Shown here in pieces: positions 1 through 4,705 of a DNA stretch of 4,705 nt. The DNA is taken from IMG/VR virus record IMGVR_UViG_2529292834_000011; one strand, written 5' to 3'. Source of the DNA: a virus. Its lineage: Duplodnaviria > Heunggongvirae > Uroviricota > Caudoviricetes. The position numbers and the translations under genes were made by a program. A model generated the notes under the pieces. That model searched no databases, had not been told where the DNA came from, and saw only the letters and a list, made by a program, of their open reading frames with translations. Each line of letters opens with the position of its first letter. Position 1 is the stretch's first letter.

Positions 1-1
1 T

Positions 2-349
2 GGAATAACCCAGGCTTATTTTGAGTTGGGTATGACGTTCCCAGAACTGTATGACGACAGCCATCCGGAAGCCCTGGCTCGCAATACCCAGAAAATTTTC
101 CGCTGGATAGAGAAAGACACCCCTGATGCAGTTGAAAAAATTCAGGCGTTGTTACCAGCGATCGAAAAGGCAATGCCACCTTTGCTGGTGGCCAGAATGC
201 GCAGCCACAGTTCAGCTTATTTTCGGGAGCTGGTGGAGACGCGGGAGCGACTGGTGAGAGACGCTGATGATTTTGTCGCAGTGGCAATCGCCGGTTTCAA
301 TCAGATGAACCGTGGTGGCCCGGCAGGAAATGCTGTGGCAGTGCATTGA
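2..349 (+). CDS. 3' portion of a prophage early-region protein; N-terminus lies upstream of the window (cII-position gene, possibly YdaT-like)
   Basis: The reading frame is open from position 2 with no stop until TGA at 347-349, so the ATG at 26 is probably internal. It lies directly upstream of the replication-initiator gene, the position cII occupies in lambdoid phages. The family name is recalled, not verified. Confidence 0.6.
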   Translation, partial: GITQAYFELGMTFPELYDDSHPEALARNTQKIFRWIEKDTPDAVEKIQALLPAIEKAMPPLLVARMRSHSSAYFRELVETRERLVRDADDFVAVAIAGFNQMNRGGPAGNAVAVH

Positions 350-420
350 GTGATAATAGCCATATCGAATCACTTCCGGCAACTCGTGAGTAAAAAGATT
401 CGGTATCAGAAGAGGTGAGT

Positions 421-1491
421 ATGGCTAACGCCTGGCTCAGATTATGGCATGACATGCCAAATGACCCTAAGTGGCGAACAATTGCCAGGGTGTCAGGGCA
501 GTCAATTGCAACAGTGATGGCAGTGTATATCCACCTCCTGGTGAGCGCGTCACGAAATGTCACGCGAGGTCACATTGATGTCACGACAGAAGATTTGGCA
601 AGTGCGCTCGACGTGACAGAAGAGGTAATTGATTCAATTTTGCAGACGATGCAGGGGCGGGTACTTGATGGTGATTTAATCACTGGATGGGAAAAACGCC
701 AGGTGCTTAAAGAGGACAACGGCAATATTTCGCAAACCGCAAAATCTCCTGCAGAGCGCAAGAGGGCGCAGCGAGAGAGGGAAAGAAAGCGGGAACAAAA
801 TGGCGATTGTCACGGCGCGTCACGAAATGTCACGCACATGTCACGACGAGTCACGACAGATAAAGATACAGATAAAGATACAGATCAAGAAGATCAAAAC
901 ACTATGGTCCATGGCGTAAAAAACGCCACGAACCAGGCAGGGGATGTTCAGACCGTCAATCTTGGTCAGCCAGCAGGCACGACACCGGAAGCCGATTCAG
1001 CGTATGCGCTGAAAGCCGATTCGGGCGCTGTGCAGCAGGTGATGACCGCAAGGCCGGAGCAATCACACCAACTGCAGCAGCCTGAAGCCGATTCCGCCAT
1101 TCAGCGGGAAGCCGATCGGGTAGTCACGGAAAACACCGGGCAGCCTGTGAGACGAGTGGATTATCCGGATGTGTTCGAACAGGTCTGGCGGGAATACCCG
1201 TTGCGTGCTGGGGCAAACCCGAAGAAATCCGCTTTCAGTGCCTGGAAGGCCAGATTACGCGAGGGGGTGTCACCAGAGGCCATGCTGGATGGCGTGAGGC
1301 GTTACGCAAGATACCTTGCGGCTACCGGGAAAACGGGAACGGAATTTGTTCAGCGAGCGACGACGTTTTTTGGACCGGACCGGAATTTTGAAAACCCCTG
1401 GCTGCTCCCGGTAAGCGGCACGAACAACCAGCGTTGTGTGAATCATATTTCTGAACCGGATACCGAAATTCCACCGGGCTTCAGGGGGTAA
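421..1491 (+). CDS. phage replisome organizer / replication initiator (O-like), with embedded iterons
   Basis: ATG at 421 has a Shine-Dalgarno AAGAGGTG at 410-417 with a 5-nt spacer; the ORF track starts at GTG 415, which is too close to the SD. The N-terminus (ANAWLRLWHDMPNDPKWRTIA...) resembles the phage replisome-organizer N-terminal DNA-binding domain. A low-complexity acidic/polar linker (DKDTDKDTDQEDQ, Q/P/A-rich) is followed by a distinct C-terminal domain (FEQVWREYP...WKARL...YARYL...). Its own coding sequence contains iteron clusters, as in lambda O. Confidence 0.7.
   Translation: MANAWLRLWHDMPNDPKWRTIARVSGQSIATVMAVYIHLLVSASRNVTRGHIDVTTEDLASALDVTEEVIDSILQTMQGRVLDGDLITGWEKRQVLKEDNGNISQTAKSPAERKRAQRERERKREQNGDCHGASRNVTHMSRRVTTDKDTDKDTDQEDQNTMVHGVKNATNQAGDVQTVNLGQPAGTTPEADSAYALKADSGAVQQVMTARPEQSHQLQQPEADSAIQREADRVVTENTGQPVRRVDYPDVFEQVWREYPLRAGANPKKSAFSAWKARLREGVSPEAMLDGVRRYARYLAATGKTGTEFVQRATTFFGPDRNFENPWLLPVSGTNNQRCVNHISEPDTEIPPGFRG
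545..590. repeat. iteron cluster A: four GTCAC(G/A) hexamers at 10-11 bp phasing
   Basis: Hexamers at 549-554, 559-564, 569-574 (GTCACA) and 580-585. The 21-bp block 545-565 is identical to 815-835, and both clusters end in GTCACGACAGA. Confidence 0.65.
805..860. repeat. iteron cluster B: five GTCACG hexamers at 10-11 bp phasing
   Basis: Hexamers at 809-814, 819-824, 829-834, 840-845 and 850-855. Spacing matches one helical turn, and the cluster is followed immediately by an AT/purine-rich tract. Confidence 0.65.
857..900. repeat. AT-rich, purine-biased tract with 12-bp tandem repeat (CAGATAAAGATA x2 plus a degenerate third copy)
   Basis: Positions 857-868 and 869-880 are identical, followed by cagatcaagaagatcaaaac. 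It sits directly 3' of iteron cluster B and encodes the DKDTDKDTDQEDQ linker of the initiator. Confidence 0.6.
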
Positions 1492-1531
1492 GTGTTGATT
1501 TCTGGTCATGAGGTAATTTTCAGGAGGACTT

Positions 1532-1954
1532 GTGGCAAAAGTTTTTACACAAGAAGAGCGGGAAAAAATTAAAGGGCAGGTTGTTGAACTCGTACGCCAG
1601 AGTGGGCGCGAGACGTTACGACAACTGGAAACTAAAACTGGGGCAACAAGATATCTGATGAGCGTTCTGGCCAGAGAGCTGGTTGCCAGTGGCGATGTAT
1701 ACAACTCTGGTTACGGGTTATTCCCGTCTGAACAGGCGCGTAAGGACTGGCAAAATGCCCGTAAAAAGCTCTCAAGGGCAAAGCTGAAGAAACCATCTGC
1801 GGTTGATCCGGACCTTATCTGGTCATTACCTGACGGAGAAATACGTCGCTACGACAGGCGTCAGAACATAATCTGTCGCGAGTGCCGGAAGAGTGAGGTT
1901 ATGCAGCGAGTGCTGGCGTTTTATCAGGGTAATTTTCAGGAGGTGATGGCGTGA
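1532..1954 (+). CDS. hypothetical prophage protein, possible winged-helix DNA-binding fold
   Basis: GTG start at 1532 with SD CAGGAGGA at 1521-1528; 140 aa ending at TGA 1952-1954. No Walker A motif, so it is not a DnaC/P-type helicase loader despite occupying that position. Confidence 0.6.
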   Translation: MAKVFTQEEREKIKGQVVELVRQSGRETLRQLETKTGATRYLMSVLARELVASGDVYNSGYGLFPSEQARKDWQNARKKLSRAKLKKPSAVDPDLIWSLPDGEIRRYDRRQNIICRECRKSEVMQRVLAFYQGNFQEVMA

Positions 1955-2246
1955 GAGTGAGAGTCTATATCGCCGGTCCAATGACCGGGTATAAAAATTT
2001 CAACCGTGAGGCGTTTCACAATGCGGAAGAGGAACTGAAACGGGAAGGGCATACCGTTTTAAATCCGGCTGTGCTTCCGGATGGGCTGACACAGCCGCAC
2101 TACATGGATATTGCATGGCAATGATTCGTTGTGTGGATGCGATTTACATGCTGAAAGGCTGGCAGCGGTCAGCAGGTGCTAAGGCAGAACTGGCGCTGGC
2201 GGAGAAACTGGGGCATGCAGTTATTTTCCAGGAGGAGGTACAGTGA
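1951..2246 (+). pseudogene. DUF4406 / nucleoside 2-deoxyribosyltransferase-like gene, split by an apparent 1-nt frameshift
   Basis: The frame from GTG 1951 encodes MRVRVYIAGPMTGYKNF...HTVLNPAVLPDGL...YMDIAWQ and stops at TGA 2122-2124. A second frame (2115/2121 to TGA 2244-2246) encodes MAMIRCVDAIYMLKGWQRSAGAKAELALAEKLGHAVIF. Together they make one DUF4406-like domain (YIAGP...NP...CDAIYML.GW) if a single base is restored near 2113-2118. SD GGAGGTGA at 1940-1947. Confidence 0.5.
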
Positions 2247-2518
2247 ATATCGACGCAACAATGACGATTGGTACGGCCCTCAATACGGGGCTGGCGCTTC
2301 TTGGTTGGTGCTACATCATGTTCTGCTCATGGCGGTGGCTGTCACTGATGTTACTGAAAGAATGGAATAAACGCTGTAAACAGACGCAGCGGCAGAAGGC
2401 AATGAATGCGTTTTTTGAGACCTTCGATATTGACAGTATAGAACCAGGAGAGCCAGCTCGCGTGATTAGCAGAGGTGACGTTGTAATTCTTGTATACCGG
2501 AGTGAAGAGAAAGCATAA
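2243..2518 (+). CDS. small single-pass membrane protein, function unknown
   Basis: GTG at 2243 overlaps the preceding stop (GTGA), with SD GGAGGAGG at 2231-2238. It has an N-terminal hydrophobic helix (TIGTALNTGLALLGWCYIMFCSW) and a basic, charged C-terminus. Confidence 0.5.
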   Translation: MNIDATMTIGTALNTGLALLGWCYIMFCSWRWLSLMLLKEWNKRCKQTQRQKAMNAFFETFDIDSIEPGEPARVISRGDVVILVYRSEEKA

Positions 2519-2604
2519 TCCAAATCTGAATAATTAAATCCAGCACTGTAAATAAAATTTAATCCTTAACCGGAGGGATTTCTGCACCCTCAGAACATCA
2601 GGAG

Positions 2605-2622
2605 GCCGCCCGAAAGGGCGGT
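2605..2622. other. GC-rich hairpin (7-bp stem with GAAA tetraloop) at the left edge of the AT-rich island, immediately 5' of the next gene's RBS
   Basis: Positions 2605-2611 GCCGCCC pair with 2616-2622 GGGCGGT (one G-U pair), loop GAAA 2612-2615. No U-tract follows on either strand, so it is not a canonical intrinsic terminator. Confidence 0.35.
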
Positions 2623-2632
2623 GGAGATAATA

Positions 2633-2887
2633 ATGGAAATAACTAAAGAACGATTATTGGAAATAGCAAATCTTAGTGAAAGGGCATTAAGTGATGGGAG
2701 GATTATTTCTCCTGATGCTTATGAATCAGTTACAAGTATAGAAATAATAACGATGGCCAGGATGCTTCTTGGTTGCCTCAAAAAAGAATATAAAAAAAAG
2801 GTGGATAGCAATGCTAATATATATGATATTTTGGACAGTTGGGGGGCTTGGGCTGCAGCTGGAAATAGTTCTATCAACTGGCAGTAA
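2633..2887 (+). CDS. hypothetical protein; possibly the N-terminal part of a gene interrupted by an in-frame TAA
   Basis: ATG at 2633 with SD GGAG at 2623-2626 and a 6-nt spacer. AT-rich codon usage. The frame ends at TAA 2885-2887 and continues in the same frame into the next ORF. Confidence 0.45.
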   Translation: MEITKERLLEIANLSERALSDGRIISPDAYESVTSIEIITMARMLLGCLKKEYKKKVDSNANIYDILDSWGAWAAAGNSSINWQ

Positions 2888-3157
2888 GTGGCTGATAAAT
2901 ATAAAGATGTAGTACCTCATGGTAAGAAATTACGCCGTCAGTGTGGCAACGATGAAGGTCGTATGATTGATACCTGCATGTTGAAGCTTAAACAATATAG
3001 AATAGATGACTATGAGTTAATTATCGCTCATTTTGTTATAGGTATATCTTTGCGTACAATAGCACGAAGGTACAAATGTTCAGATGGAACAATAAGAAAG
3101 AATATACAACTTACAATGGGAGTATTGTTAGGATTGTCTTTTTATGTGCAATTATAG
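2888..3157 (+). CDS. helix-turn-helix protein with a sigma-70 region-4-like motif; may be the C-terminal part of the preceding ORF
   Basis: GTG at 2888 immediately follows TAA in the same frame, with no convincing SD. The motif YELIIAHFVIGISLRTIARRYKCSDGTIRKNI matches the sigma-70 region-4 / LuxR-type HTH pattern, followed by a hydrophobic tail. Confidence 0.45.
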   Translation: MADKYKDVVPHGKKLRRQCGNDEGRMIDTCMLKLKQYRIDDYELIIAHFVIGISLRTIARRYKCSDGTIRKNIQLTMGVLLGLSFYVQL

Positions 3158-3162
3158 ATATA

Positions 3163-3642
3163 TCACATGAGCCTTGTTATGTCCTTTAGACGCGACCAGG
3201 TAGTATAAAATTTTTTAAATGTAATAAGCAGGAAAAAAATTCCCACTTGGAGTAATAGTTGGGCATATGTGTGCTCGTCGGCATCTTTTACTAGTGGGAA
3301 TTTAAACTTTAGTGTATCAGGGAAAAATAATAAAATGATAAAAATAATACAAACTGATAGTAACCATCCCATAGTGGAGTGCATTTCTTCGGTCAGTTTT
3401 TTCAAATAACCAGTTTTTCCTATATTTCTAATTAGCGTATTATCTCTAGCTGAAGCAATCAAGGTAAGCGAACCTAAAACAAAGCCAAATAATATCCCAG
3501 AAAATGTAGAAACGGCCGAAGCGATTGGCTGAATTTGTGCAAAATTTAGCTTTGCAGAAAGAGGCCATGCGATGATACAAAAAACAACAGAGGCTAAATT
3601 ATAACCATAACTGTACAAAGTTATCAATTTCCCCTTTTTCAT
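3163..3642 (-). CDS. small integral membrane protein with four predicted transmembrane helices; candidate effector of a two-gene module
   Basis: ATG (revcomp of 3640-3642) is preceded by SD GGAG (3653-3650) with a 7-nt spacer, 15 nt after the upstream gene's TAA. Four hydrophobic segments of about 17-25 aa (approx. residues 16-30, 39-63, 90-107, 126-142). Confidence 0.6.
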   Translation of the reverse strand: MKKGKLITLYSYGYNLASVVFCIIAWPLSAKLNFAQIQPIASAVSTFSGILFGFVLGSLTLIASARDNTLIRNIGKTGYLKKLTEEMHSTMGWLLSVCIIFIILLFFPDTLKFKFPLVKDADEHTYAQLLLQVGIFFLLITFKKFYTTWSRLKDITRLM

Positions 3643-3657
3643 ACCATCGCTCCAAAA

Positions 3658-4407
3658 TTAATCAACTCTTTGATTGGCTACTCCAAAGTATGCCTTCAAT
3701 TCATCATCTTTACTATCTTTTGCAAGAGTTAAGGCGCTCCAAATGCTGCCAACTAATGGATACCTACCTCCAAGTTCAACATCTGTGTAGTAGACTAATT
3801 TGTCTGCTACAAGATCGATAGGATGCTGTACACCGGTCTCAATGTCTTGGGTTTCTAGTTTAAGTTTTTCAACCTCAAAAGTCTCTAGTGTTTCTTTAAA
3901 GGCTCTTTTTAGTTGAGAACCTAGATAGCGAGATTCAGGATCTTCAGAACGACTATCCCCACGTAATGTAAGATTTACTTTGGCAGAATTAGTACCATTT
4001 AGAGTGGCTATCAATGCATTGTTGAAGTTATGTTCAACATCCTCATATAGTTGCACATTCTTTGGCCGAGCGATACCGATTTCTAGAGTTTTGATTCGAA
4101 CTTCATTACGCATCAACCACTTTAAACTACTGGTCTGAATGATGGGATTAACAGTTGTATTTTGTGAACTGTTGGAAAGATATTTACTTAATAACACCCA
4201 GCCATAACAGAGTCTGTTTCGTTGAATTATTAAAACTGAGTCTTGGGTATAAAAATGAAAATAAGCTTTTTCTAATAAGTTTTCATTGATTTCAAGTTTA
4301 ATTTCTCTTTCTTCACCTCCGGCTACAGCAACATGAGGGAGATTATTGGTTCTGTGTTTTCCTATAACTCCCCTGAAACCATAGTCGGTTCTTTCCATGA
4401 AGCGCAT
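3658..4407 (-). CDS. soluble protein of unrecognised family, upstream gene of the two-gene module; 5' end probably truncated or displaced by IS1
   Basis: The open frame runs from the IS1 junction to TAA (revcomp of 3658-3660). The first native ATG (4407-4405) has no usable SD (AGGAAA is 15 nt away), and the frame stays open upstream into the IS1 end. The TTG start at 4446 on the ORF track is IS1-derived. No catalytic motif recognised. Confidence 0.5.
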   Translation of the reverse strand: MRFMERTDYGFRGVIGKHRTNNLPHVAVAGGEEREIKLEINENLLEKAYFHFYTQDSVLIIQRNRLCYGWVLLSKYLSNSSQNTTVNPIIQTSSLKWLMRNEVRIKTLEIGIARPKNVQLYEDVEHNFNNALIATLNGTNSAKVNLTLRGDSRSEDPESRYLGSQLKRAFKETLETFEVEKLKLETQDIETGVQHPIDLVADKLVYYTDVELGGRYPLVGSIWSALTLAKDSKDDELKAYFGVANQRVD

Positions 4408-4432
4408 TTCAACTAGTTTATTTCCTATTTTA

Positions 4433-4455
4433 GGTGATGCTGCCAACTTACTGAT
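4433..4455 (+). repeat. IS1 left terminal inverted repeat (IRL)
   Basis: GGTGATGCTGCCAACTTACTGAT, the characteristic 23-bp IS1 terminal repeat. Confidence 0.9.
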
Positions 4456-4487
4456 TTAGTGTATGATGGTGTTTTTGAGGTGCTCCA

Positions 4488-4705
4488 GTGGCTTCTGTTT
4501 CTATCAGCTGTCCCTCCTGTTCAGCTACTGACGGGGTGGTGCGTAACGGCAAAAGCACTGCCGGACATCAGCGCTATCTCTGCTCTCACTGCCGTAAAAC
4601 ATGGCAACTGCAGTTCACTTACACCGCTTCTCAACCCGGTACGCACCAGAAAATCATTGATATGGCCATGAATGGCGTTGGATGCCGGGCAACTGCCCGC
4701 ATTAT
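4488..4705 (+). CDS. insA: IS1 InsA transposition regulator, 5' partial
   Basis: GTG at 4488 begins (M)[71 protein letters not shown], the InsA zinc-finger N-terminus. The frame runs off the window. The ORF-track entry 4459..4671 is a different, spurious frame. Confidence 0.9.

Follow-up and report, generated by a model that had tools for sequence, protein, structure and literature searches.

A Q-family antiterminator module beside a candidate RexAB-type cassette in the low-GC block of a decaying Rac/Qin-like prophage

Gene content and composition of the locus

The IMG/VR virus record IMGVR_UViG_2529292834_000011 (Caudoviricetes) is a stretch of 4,705 nucleotides (nt), hereafter the window, and represents the whole of a draft contig (APXF01000115.1 of assembly GCA_000356225.2, 4705 bp). 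Both of its ends are contig ends: the left one cuts a YdaT-family gene and the right one lies inside IS1, where the window stops because it is the complete draft contig. Here we describe the low-GC block at positions 2519–4432, which holds a gene of the phage antiterminator Q family and, convergent to it, a pair of genes for a DUF6731 protein and a small membrane protein. We consider it probable that this block is a composite of a Q module and a RexAB-type abortive-infection cassette in a cargo slot, inactivated in the source strain.

Positions 1–4435 of the window align without gaps to an uninterrupted locus of Escherichia coli ATCC 43896 (L001) at 99.91 per cent identity (4 mismatches), and the intact block, followed by hokD, is present in 19 complete E. 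coli genomes (ATCC 43896 and 18 others). The RefSeq gene order of L001 is DUF4752, antiterminator Q family protein (174 amino acids [aa]), hypothetical protein (159 aa), DUF6731 (304 aa), and hokD, with the 159-aa and DUF6731 genes on the strand opposite to Q. In L001, the intact cassette carries the locus tags CS031_RS13170–13175 (NZ_CP024278, 2485288–2486697). A single Q-family gene, interrupted by an in-frame TAA, underlies the open reading frames (ORFs) at 2621–2887 and 2888–3157; position 2885 is T in the window and C in L001, this being one of the 4 mismatches counted above. A preliminary description of the window, made from the sequence alone, had counted four ORFs in the block and had overlooked the inactivation of both the Q and the DUF6731 genes. 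AT-rich ORFs are indeed there, but they amount to three genes, two of them inactivated in the source strain, because Q is split by the TAA and the DUF6731 gene is cut by IS1. The features are as follows.

2519–2620 (no strand): conserved intergenic linker; left mosaic joint, 44 per cent GC
2633–3157 (plus): antiterminator Q-family pseudogene; PF06530, RefSeq annotation; ~35 per cent GC
2885–2887 (plus): in-frame TAA in Q (CAA to TAA, Gln85 to stop), from comparison with L001
3128–4432 (minus): retained part of the swappable cargo cassette, delimited by homology joints
3163–3642 (minus): 159-aa membrane protein, candidate RexB-like partner, seemingly intact; ORF, AlphaFold2 (AF2) model and hydropathy
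3658–4432 (minus): 3' part of the DUF6731 (putative RexA-like) gene, codons 48–304, truncated by IS1
4433–4705 (plus): IS1 left end, terminal inverted repeat GGTGATGCTGCC and start of insA

The preliminary description also reported an abrupt fall in GC content after the stop codon at 2516–2518, to about 30 per cent. The step is real and beyond chance, but shallower: GC content is 51.4 per cent at 1–2518, 36.0 per cent at 2519–4432, and 51.3 per cent in the IS1 part (4433–4705), and it stays low up to the IS1 junction, as had been stated. Within the block, windows of 200 nt range from 30.5 to 40.5 per cent, and the interval 3301–3360, put at about 20 per cent by eye, computes to exactly 20 per cent, whereas the first ~100 nt past the stop codon (2519–2620) have 44 per cent GC. 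A three-segment model gains 58 log-likelihood units over a single-composition model. The optimum puts its two breaks at 2483 and 4476, near 2519 and the IS1 end (4433), and the left one is loosely fixed, as positions from ~2340 to 2620 lie within 2 log-likelihood units. The AT-rich codon usage that had been noted in the ORFs of the block was borne out by their GC content at third codon positions (GC3), which is 0.27–0.31 against 0.50–0.55 in the flanking genes. In uninterrupted relatives, the low-GC block is ~2.4 kb long and reaches to ~200 nt short of hokD.

Since the whole window is a draft contig ending inside IS1, and its IS1 junction had no exact counterpart in the other genomes searched, the composition step or the junction could be ascribed to chance or to a chimeric contig. 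We regard such an explanation as scarcely credible: positions 1–4432 are co-linear at 99.9 per cent with the 19 complete genomes, the break coincides to the base with the start of the IS1 terminal repeat, and chance is excluded by the likelihood gain of 58 units.

Two modules that exchange independently

The intact 174-aa Q copy of L001 matches PF06530 (Phage_antitermQ) at E = 2.6e-30 and also phrog_79. Its Q domain spans residues 62–168, and the window allele stops at codon 85; therefore, only Q fragments can be made, and the Q-family gene, as far as its reading frame tells, is a pseudogene in the source strain. At the DNA level, the Q module retains 83–91 per cent identity across prophages with differing downstream cargo, and every Q allele sampled has 35–37 per cent GC. 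Of 5426 complete E. coli genomes, 68 carry the module. In a phage collection, DNA-level similarity was confined to the 3' half of Q (65–69 per cent to Q genes of Stx1/Stx2 phages, mEp460, and Klebsiella phages), and no DNA-level copy of the DUF6731 cassette was found there.

Prophages with other left neighbours place the left joint of the Q module at window ~2501–2522, and the genes on that side differ among prophages (DUF4752, DUF977, ead/Ea22-like, and others). The 104-nt linker before Q is far more widespread than Q itself, being found in ~2500 of the 5426 genomes with 89–97 per cent conservation, and the element at 2519–2620 looks like a lambdoid 'linker' at a mosaic joint, not cargo. By reading of the sequence, a hairpin with a 6-bp GC stem and a GAAA loop lies at 2606–2621, just 5' of the Q ribosome-binding site; an Rfam scan of the whole window gave no match at E ≤ 0.1. 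Copies of the linker elsewhere in E. coli often carry no annotated gene.

On the right, homology between carriers of differing cassettes ends at L001 6722–6728 (window 3121–3127, in the last ~30 nt of Q) and returns at L001 8437–8443, ~180 nt 5' of hokD. Because Q stays while the right-hand cargo swaps, with the joint inside the Q 3' end, comparison of the carriers indicates that the low-GC block is two adjacent mosaic modules, exchanging independently, and not one insertion. Module 1 (~2501–3127) would consist of the Q-family antiterminator gene with its upstream linker, and module 2 (3128 to ~180 nt before hokD) of a two-gene cassette convergent to Q. The composition step coincides with these mosaic joints.

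If the whole 1.9-kb block had come in as one foreign insertion with four cargo genes, this would account for its one continuous low-GC stretch and for the similar GC3 of all its ORFs. Such an origin is nonetheless very unlikely, given that the Q part is kept while the rest is replaced, from a joint in the Q 3' end onward, that the left neighbours of Q vary too, and that one gene accounts for two of the four ORFs. One cargo operon of four ORFs was likewise rejected, because its ORFs lie on opposite strands and Q is split. The block had been described as horizontally acquired cargo; this applies to its right two-thirds, which are swappable, but not to the left third, a phage Q-family gene that stays put.

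The C-terminal ~55 residues of Q (helix-turn-helix-like; window ~3000–3157) vary between prophages and co-vary with the downstream cassette type: two related prophages, L010 and L011, have the same C-terminus, L004 and L009 are a single substitution apart, and L002 and L008 each have one of their own. This co-variation could reflect either a recombination joint inside Q or functional coupling. Q and the membrane-protein gene converge, with 5 nt between their 3' ends here and an 8-nt overlap in Klebsiella. Downstream of the window Q come the convergent cassette and then hokD, and a second Q-like candidate (DUF1133) lies after rusA and before the late genes (L001 10649–11191; L002 10475–10728). 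Because DUF1133, which precedes the late region, occupies the canonical Q position, the low-GC Q-family gene appears to be an extra copy.

The exchange slot between the Q-family gene and hok

In related Rac/Qin-like prophages, the interval from the Q-family gene to hok is filled by at least four types of minus-strand cassette (L011 comes from a construct derived from enteropathogenic E. coli [EPEC] E2348/69):

Type 1 (minus): DUF6731 protein and 159-aa membrane protein; L001, L006, L007
Type 2 (minus): NA37/YejK-like "nucleoid-associated" protein and a 406-aa or 477-aa partner; L002, L004, L009
Type 3 (minus): 309-aa protein and 182-aa membrane protein; L008 2112–3576
Type 4 (minus): trio of 363-, 142-, and 197-aa proteins; L010 5130–7280, L011 5095–7245

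All cassettes have 33–37 per cent GC, and the surrounding prophage DNA has mostly ~50 per cent (45–57 per cent in the stretches sampled). The relatives are thus not uniformly low in GC across the region; flanks of ~50 per cent GC enclose different cargo between the same landmarks, with common joints, as in a prophage cargo hotspot. The preliminary description had placed the block in the post-replication accessory region of lambdoid phages. AT-rich cargo is confirmed there, and its position can be given more exactly as the Q-to-hok slot.

Lambdoid phages have a moron slot downstream of Q; the stx genes, for example, lie there, ahead of the lysis cassette. The locus resembles that slot in having AT-rich accessory genes directly after a Q-family gene, and in Klebsiella the cassette lies between Q and holin/lysozyme genes. 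In the E. coli Rac-like prophages, by contrast, the slot leads on to hokD, DUF968, rusA, and DUF1133 rather than straight to lysis genes, and the cargo runs convergent to Q.

In one of the sister prophages, the type 2 cassette (L002) matches the NCBIfam models DS1_1_antiphage (E = 6e-29) and DS1_2_antiphage (E = 4e-30). With scores of 105 and 101 bits against equivalog cut-offs of 315 and 330, its proteins are relatives of DS-1 and not DS-1 itself. DS-1, a validated defence system with a YejK domain, is among the named systems of the DefensePredictor study, where it is marked as replicated (PMC13092281). On the strength of these matches and that listing, the slot appears to hold defence genes in sister prophages; the DS-1 relatives share the Q-to-hok position, strand, and low GC of the window cassette, and differ from it in family (NA37 versus DUF6731). 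The type 2 partner proteins (L002 5759–6979; L004 5183–6616) carry hydrophobic segments near their C-termini, by which DS-1-like cassettes, like RexAB, would pair a cytoplasmic (NA37/YejK-like) with a membrane protein.

Pfam, NCBIfam, and PADLOC gave no informative family for the L008 pair and the L010/L011 trio, and both are candidate unknown defence systems. Weak, co-linear similarity to the DUF6731 profile was seen for the 309-aa protein of L008 (208 columns, hhalign E = 0.015). A cytoplasmic-plus-membrane-protein logic may be common to three of the four cassette types (the DUF6731, NA37/YejK-like, and L008 pairs). More tentatively, and with somewhat less than even confidence, we suggest that the Q-to-hok interval is an undescribed defence hotspot in which the L008 and L010/L011 cassettes are new anti-phage systems and the DUF6731 pair belongs to a large branch of RexAB. 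If true, DUF6731 and its partner (~790 clusters) would form a big RexAB branch missed by current PADLOC models, and this compact, well-delimited slot in common E. coli cryptic prophages would be a place to seek defence systems.

The DUF6731 protein and its membrane partner as a candidate RexAB-type pair

The intact DUF6731 protein matches PF20505 at 47.6 bits (Pfam gathering cut-off, 27) as well as PHROG families of unknown function, and PF20505 is on record also for the truncated 262-aa product of the contig. The family comprises 789 clusters at 50 per cent identity (E ≤ 1e-3), and 80 of 90 diverse relatives match PF20505. We built an alignment of 36 homologues and an AF2 model of P0001, a protein 99 per cent identical to the intact E. 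coli copy (predicted local distance difference test [pLDDT] 73.6; predicted template-modelling score [pTM] 0.66). In a Foldseek search with this model, RdgC ranked top, followed by CENP-L/N and Iml3-Chl4. The same three are the structural relatives reported for RexA itself by Adams et al. (PMC11077077). The DUF6731 protein is accordingly modelled with the RexA fold, i.e. a split globular domain plus a dimerisation domain, RdgC-like. Two published observations point in the same direction. A protein labelled 'RexAB~RexA' (DefenseFinder-style) has PF20505 at 99.8 per cent HHblits probability in Table S5 of PMC13092281; and one Photobacterium homologue carries the UniRef name DUF4747, the motif reported to be common to RexA and Sbash gp30 (PMC6426596).

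The 159-aa gene begins 15 nt past the DUF6731 stop codon on the same strand, and the spacing of lambda rexA and rexB is likewise 15 nt. In its AF2 model (pLDDT 78.8), the protein has four long helices at residues 3–24, 34–64, 79–106, and 126–158; three segments pass a Kyte–Doolittle hydropathy of ≥1.6 and the last helix fails. It matches phrog_8552, and in PADLOC it has a weak match to RexB (E = 0.0015) and another to candidate PDC-M18B. Its alignment to the RexB profile is weak and in register (hhalign E = 0.02, probability 2.4 per cent). Conservation in the protein is highest in the loop that joins helices 2 and 3 (ASAKDNTL...TGYL), which hhalign pairs with the corresponding RexB segment. 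A toxin–antitoxin pair was considered and rejected, as there were no matches to toxin–antitoxin families and the protein sizes and fold fit Rex instead.

Among the loci examined, the small membrane-protein gene is always directly downstream of the DUF6731 gene. The two are adjacent also in Klebsiella, Rahnella, Photobacterium, Vibrio, and Marinobacterium, where their surroundings differ: the pair lies between Q and the holin/lysozyme genes of a Klebsiella lambdoid prophage, stands ahead of the lysis genes in a Mu-like prophage of Marinobacterium, and adjoins an integrase in Vibrio. A promoter and terminator consensus scan of the intact locus gave nothing above shuffled expectation and is hence uninformative.

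Under the RexAB-type explanation, the 304-aa cytoplasmic DUF6731 protein would take the role of RexA and the 159-aa membrane protein that of RexB. On the model of lambda RexAB, Sbash gp30/31, and Pseudomonas putida RexABpp, the soluble protein would be a dimeric DNA-binding sensor that, on infection, activates the membrane partner, whereupon the cell would be depolarised and the infection aborted. A RexA-like sensor of RexAB-type abortive infection is thus a testable role that we propose for DUF6731, a family unrecognised by PADLOC v2.

The likeness to the characterised systems varies. To lambda RexA/RexB (RexA, PDB 8twq), there is no detectable RexA sequence similarity and marginal RexB similarity, and lambda rexAB lies in the immunity operon next to cI, whereas the present cassette is AT-rich and lies between a Q-family gene and hok. 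P. putida RexABpp (PP_5643/PP_5644), which we liken to the present cassette by its published description, has experimental support for DNA binding and RexB-dependent toxicity (PMC12894663). Sbash gp30/gp31 and CarolAnn gp44/gp43 (Gordonia) are likewise two genes for a sensor and a protein with four transmembrane segments (PMC6426596); they come from actinobacteriophage hosts, and the likeness drawn here is one of arrangement. Sbash gp31's central cytoplasmic loop is conserved and functionally critical (PMC6426596), and the most conserved block of the present membrane protein is also the helix 2–3 loop. The structural matches of the membrane-protein model include a Sbash protein of 165 aa, possibly gp31.

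Several results weigh against a RexAB-type assignment. For the DUF6731 protein, BLASTP against lambda RexA found nothing, the E. coli protein had no match at E ≤ 0.1 to the Pfam RexA and DUF4747 families or to PADLOC RexA, none of the 90 diverse family members matched RexA or DUF4747 in Pfam, or RexA in PADLOC, at E ≤ 0.01, and hhalign against lambda RexA reached only E = 0.03–0.7. The centre of the P0001 model is of low confidence. For the membrane protein, Pfam RexB gave no match, BLASTP against RexB found nothing, and lambda RexB was not among the top 50 structural matches of its model in BFVD; its relationship to RexB is weak. The name 'DUF6731' occurs in no main text of the literature searched. 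The cassette also lies outside the immunity region, between the Q-family gene and hokD and ~3 kb from repressor/cro. Rex-like genes of some actinophages sit outside the immunity region as well (PMC11077077), and location there is therefore not universal. Finally, because the window copy is truncated, no function can be claimed for the source strain.

When the DUF6731 alignments were used as profiles against PDB sequences, one search returned nothing and another returned only eIF2-alpha matches (E ~ 0.004, 80 residues), which were weak and are regarded as spurious.

The pair could instead be a moron with a non-abortive role, modulating the lysis–lysogeny switch of its own prophage or effecting superinfection exclusion at the membrane. 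RexA is known to act in the lambda bistable switch independently of RexB (PMC11077077), the cassette adjoins the regulatory gene Q and, in Klebsiella and Marinobacterium, also lysis genes, and no defence hidden Markov model of PADLOC recognises the DUF6731 protein, all of which would suit such a role. At the loci sampled, however, the same slot holds DS-1-like defence genes, and the pair is found in lambdoid, Mu-like, and integrase-adjacent contexts; since it travels between unrelated phage types, a host-protecting moron fits better than a regulator of one phage circuit. We therefore judge the non-abortive role to be unlikely and prefer the RexAB-type explanation. AT-rich cargo beside Q in lambdoid prophages and RexAB-type systems are both already known. 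New are the assignment of the DUF6731 pair to the RexAB type, a link previously only implicit in a supplementary table, and the delimitation of the Q-to-hok exchange slot, with two unannotated cassettes.

IS1 insertion and decay in the source strain

Homology to L001 stops at 4432. The IS1 terminal inverted repeat, GGTGATGCTGCCAACTTACTGAT, begins at 4433; insA follows. The called products of this part are Zn_ribbon_InsA and HTH_Tnp_IS1 (HTH, helix-turn-helix). The IS1 part matches thousands of places in E. coli, and the corresponding piece is annotated as IS1A in one of the loci (L005). The DUF6731 gene lacks its first 46 codons and upstream promoter side, which are replaced by IS1, and the TTG "start" of the 262-aa ORF falls within the IS1 terminal repeat. 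The lost N-terminus holds the residues D9 and F10, invariant in the alignment, together with the first strand and helix of the model. Look-ups of two alternative-start versions of the truncated 262-aa ORF found no match, and the exact IS1 junction is absent from the 5426 complete E. coli genomes and from species-representative genomes.

In the source strain, the putative RexA-like gene has thus lost its promoter side and first 46 codons to IS1, and Q bears a nonsense mutation. As judged from these lesions, the two-gene system is almost certainly non-functional there. The source-strain locus is best seen as a decayed remnant that speaks of prophage erosion and not of active function.

Other signs of decay lie to the left of the block. 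A DUF4406 gene is split by a frameshift into overlapping ORFs at 1951–2124 and 2115–2246; the same lesion is annotated as 'frameshifted' in L001 and L007, where a cro/cI-family gene is frameshifted too. The host prophage is a decaying cryptic Rac/Qin-like element. Further left, an imperfect direct repeat of ~46 nt (85 per cent identity; window 545–590 and 815–860) falls within a 358-aa replisome-organiser-like ORF (415–1491), whose repeat region also encodes a low-complexity DKDTDKDTD motif and charged stretches.

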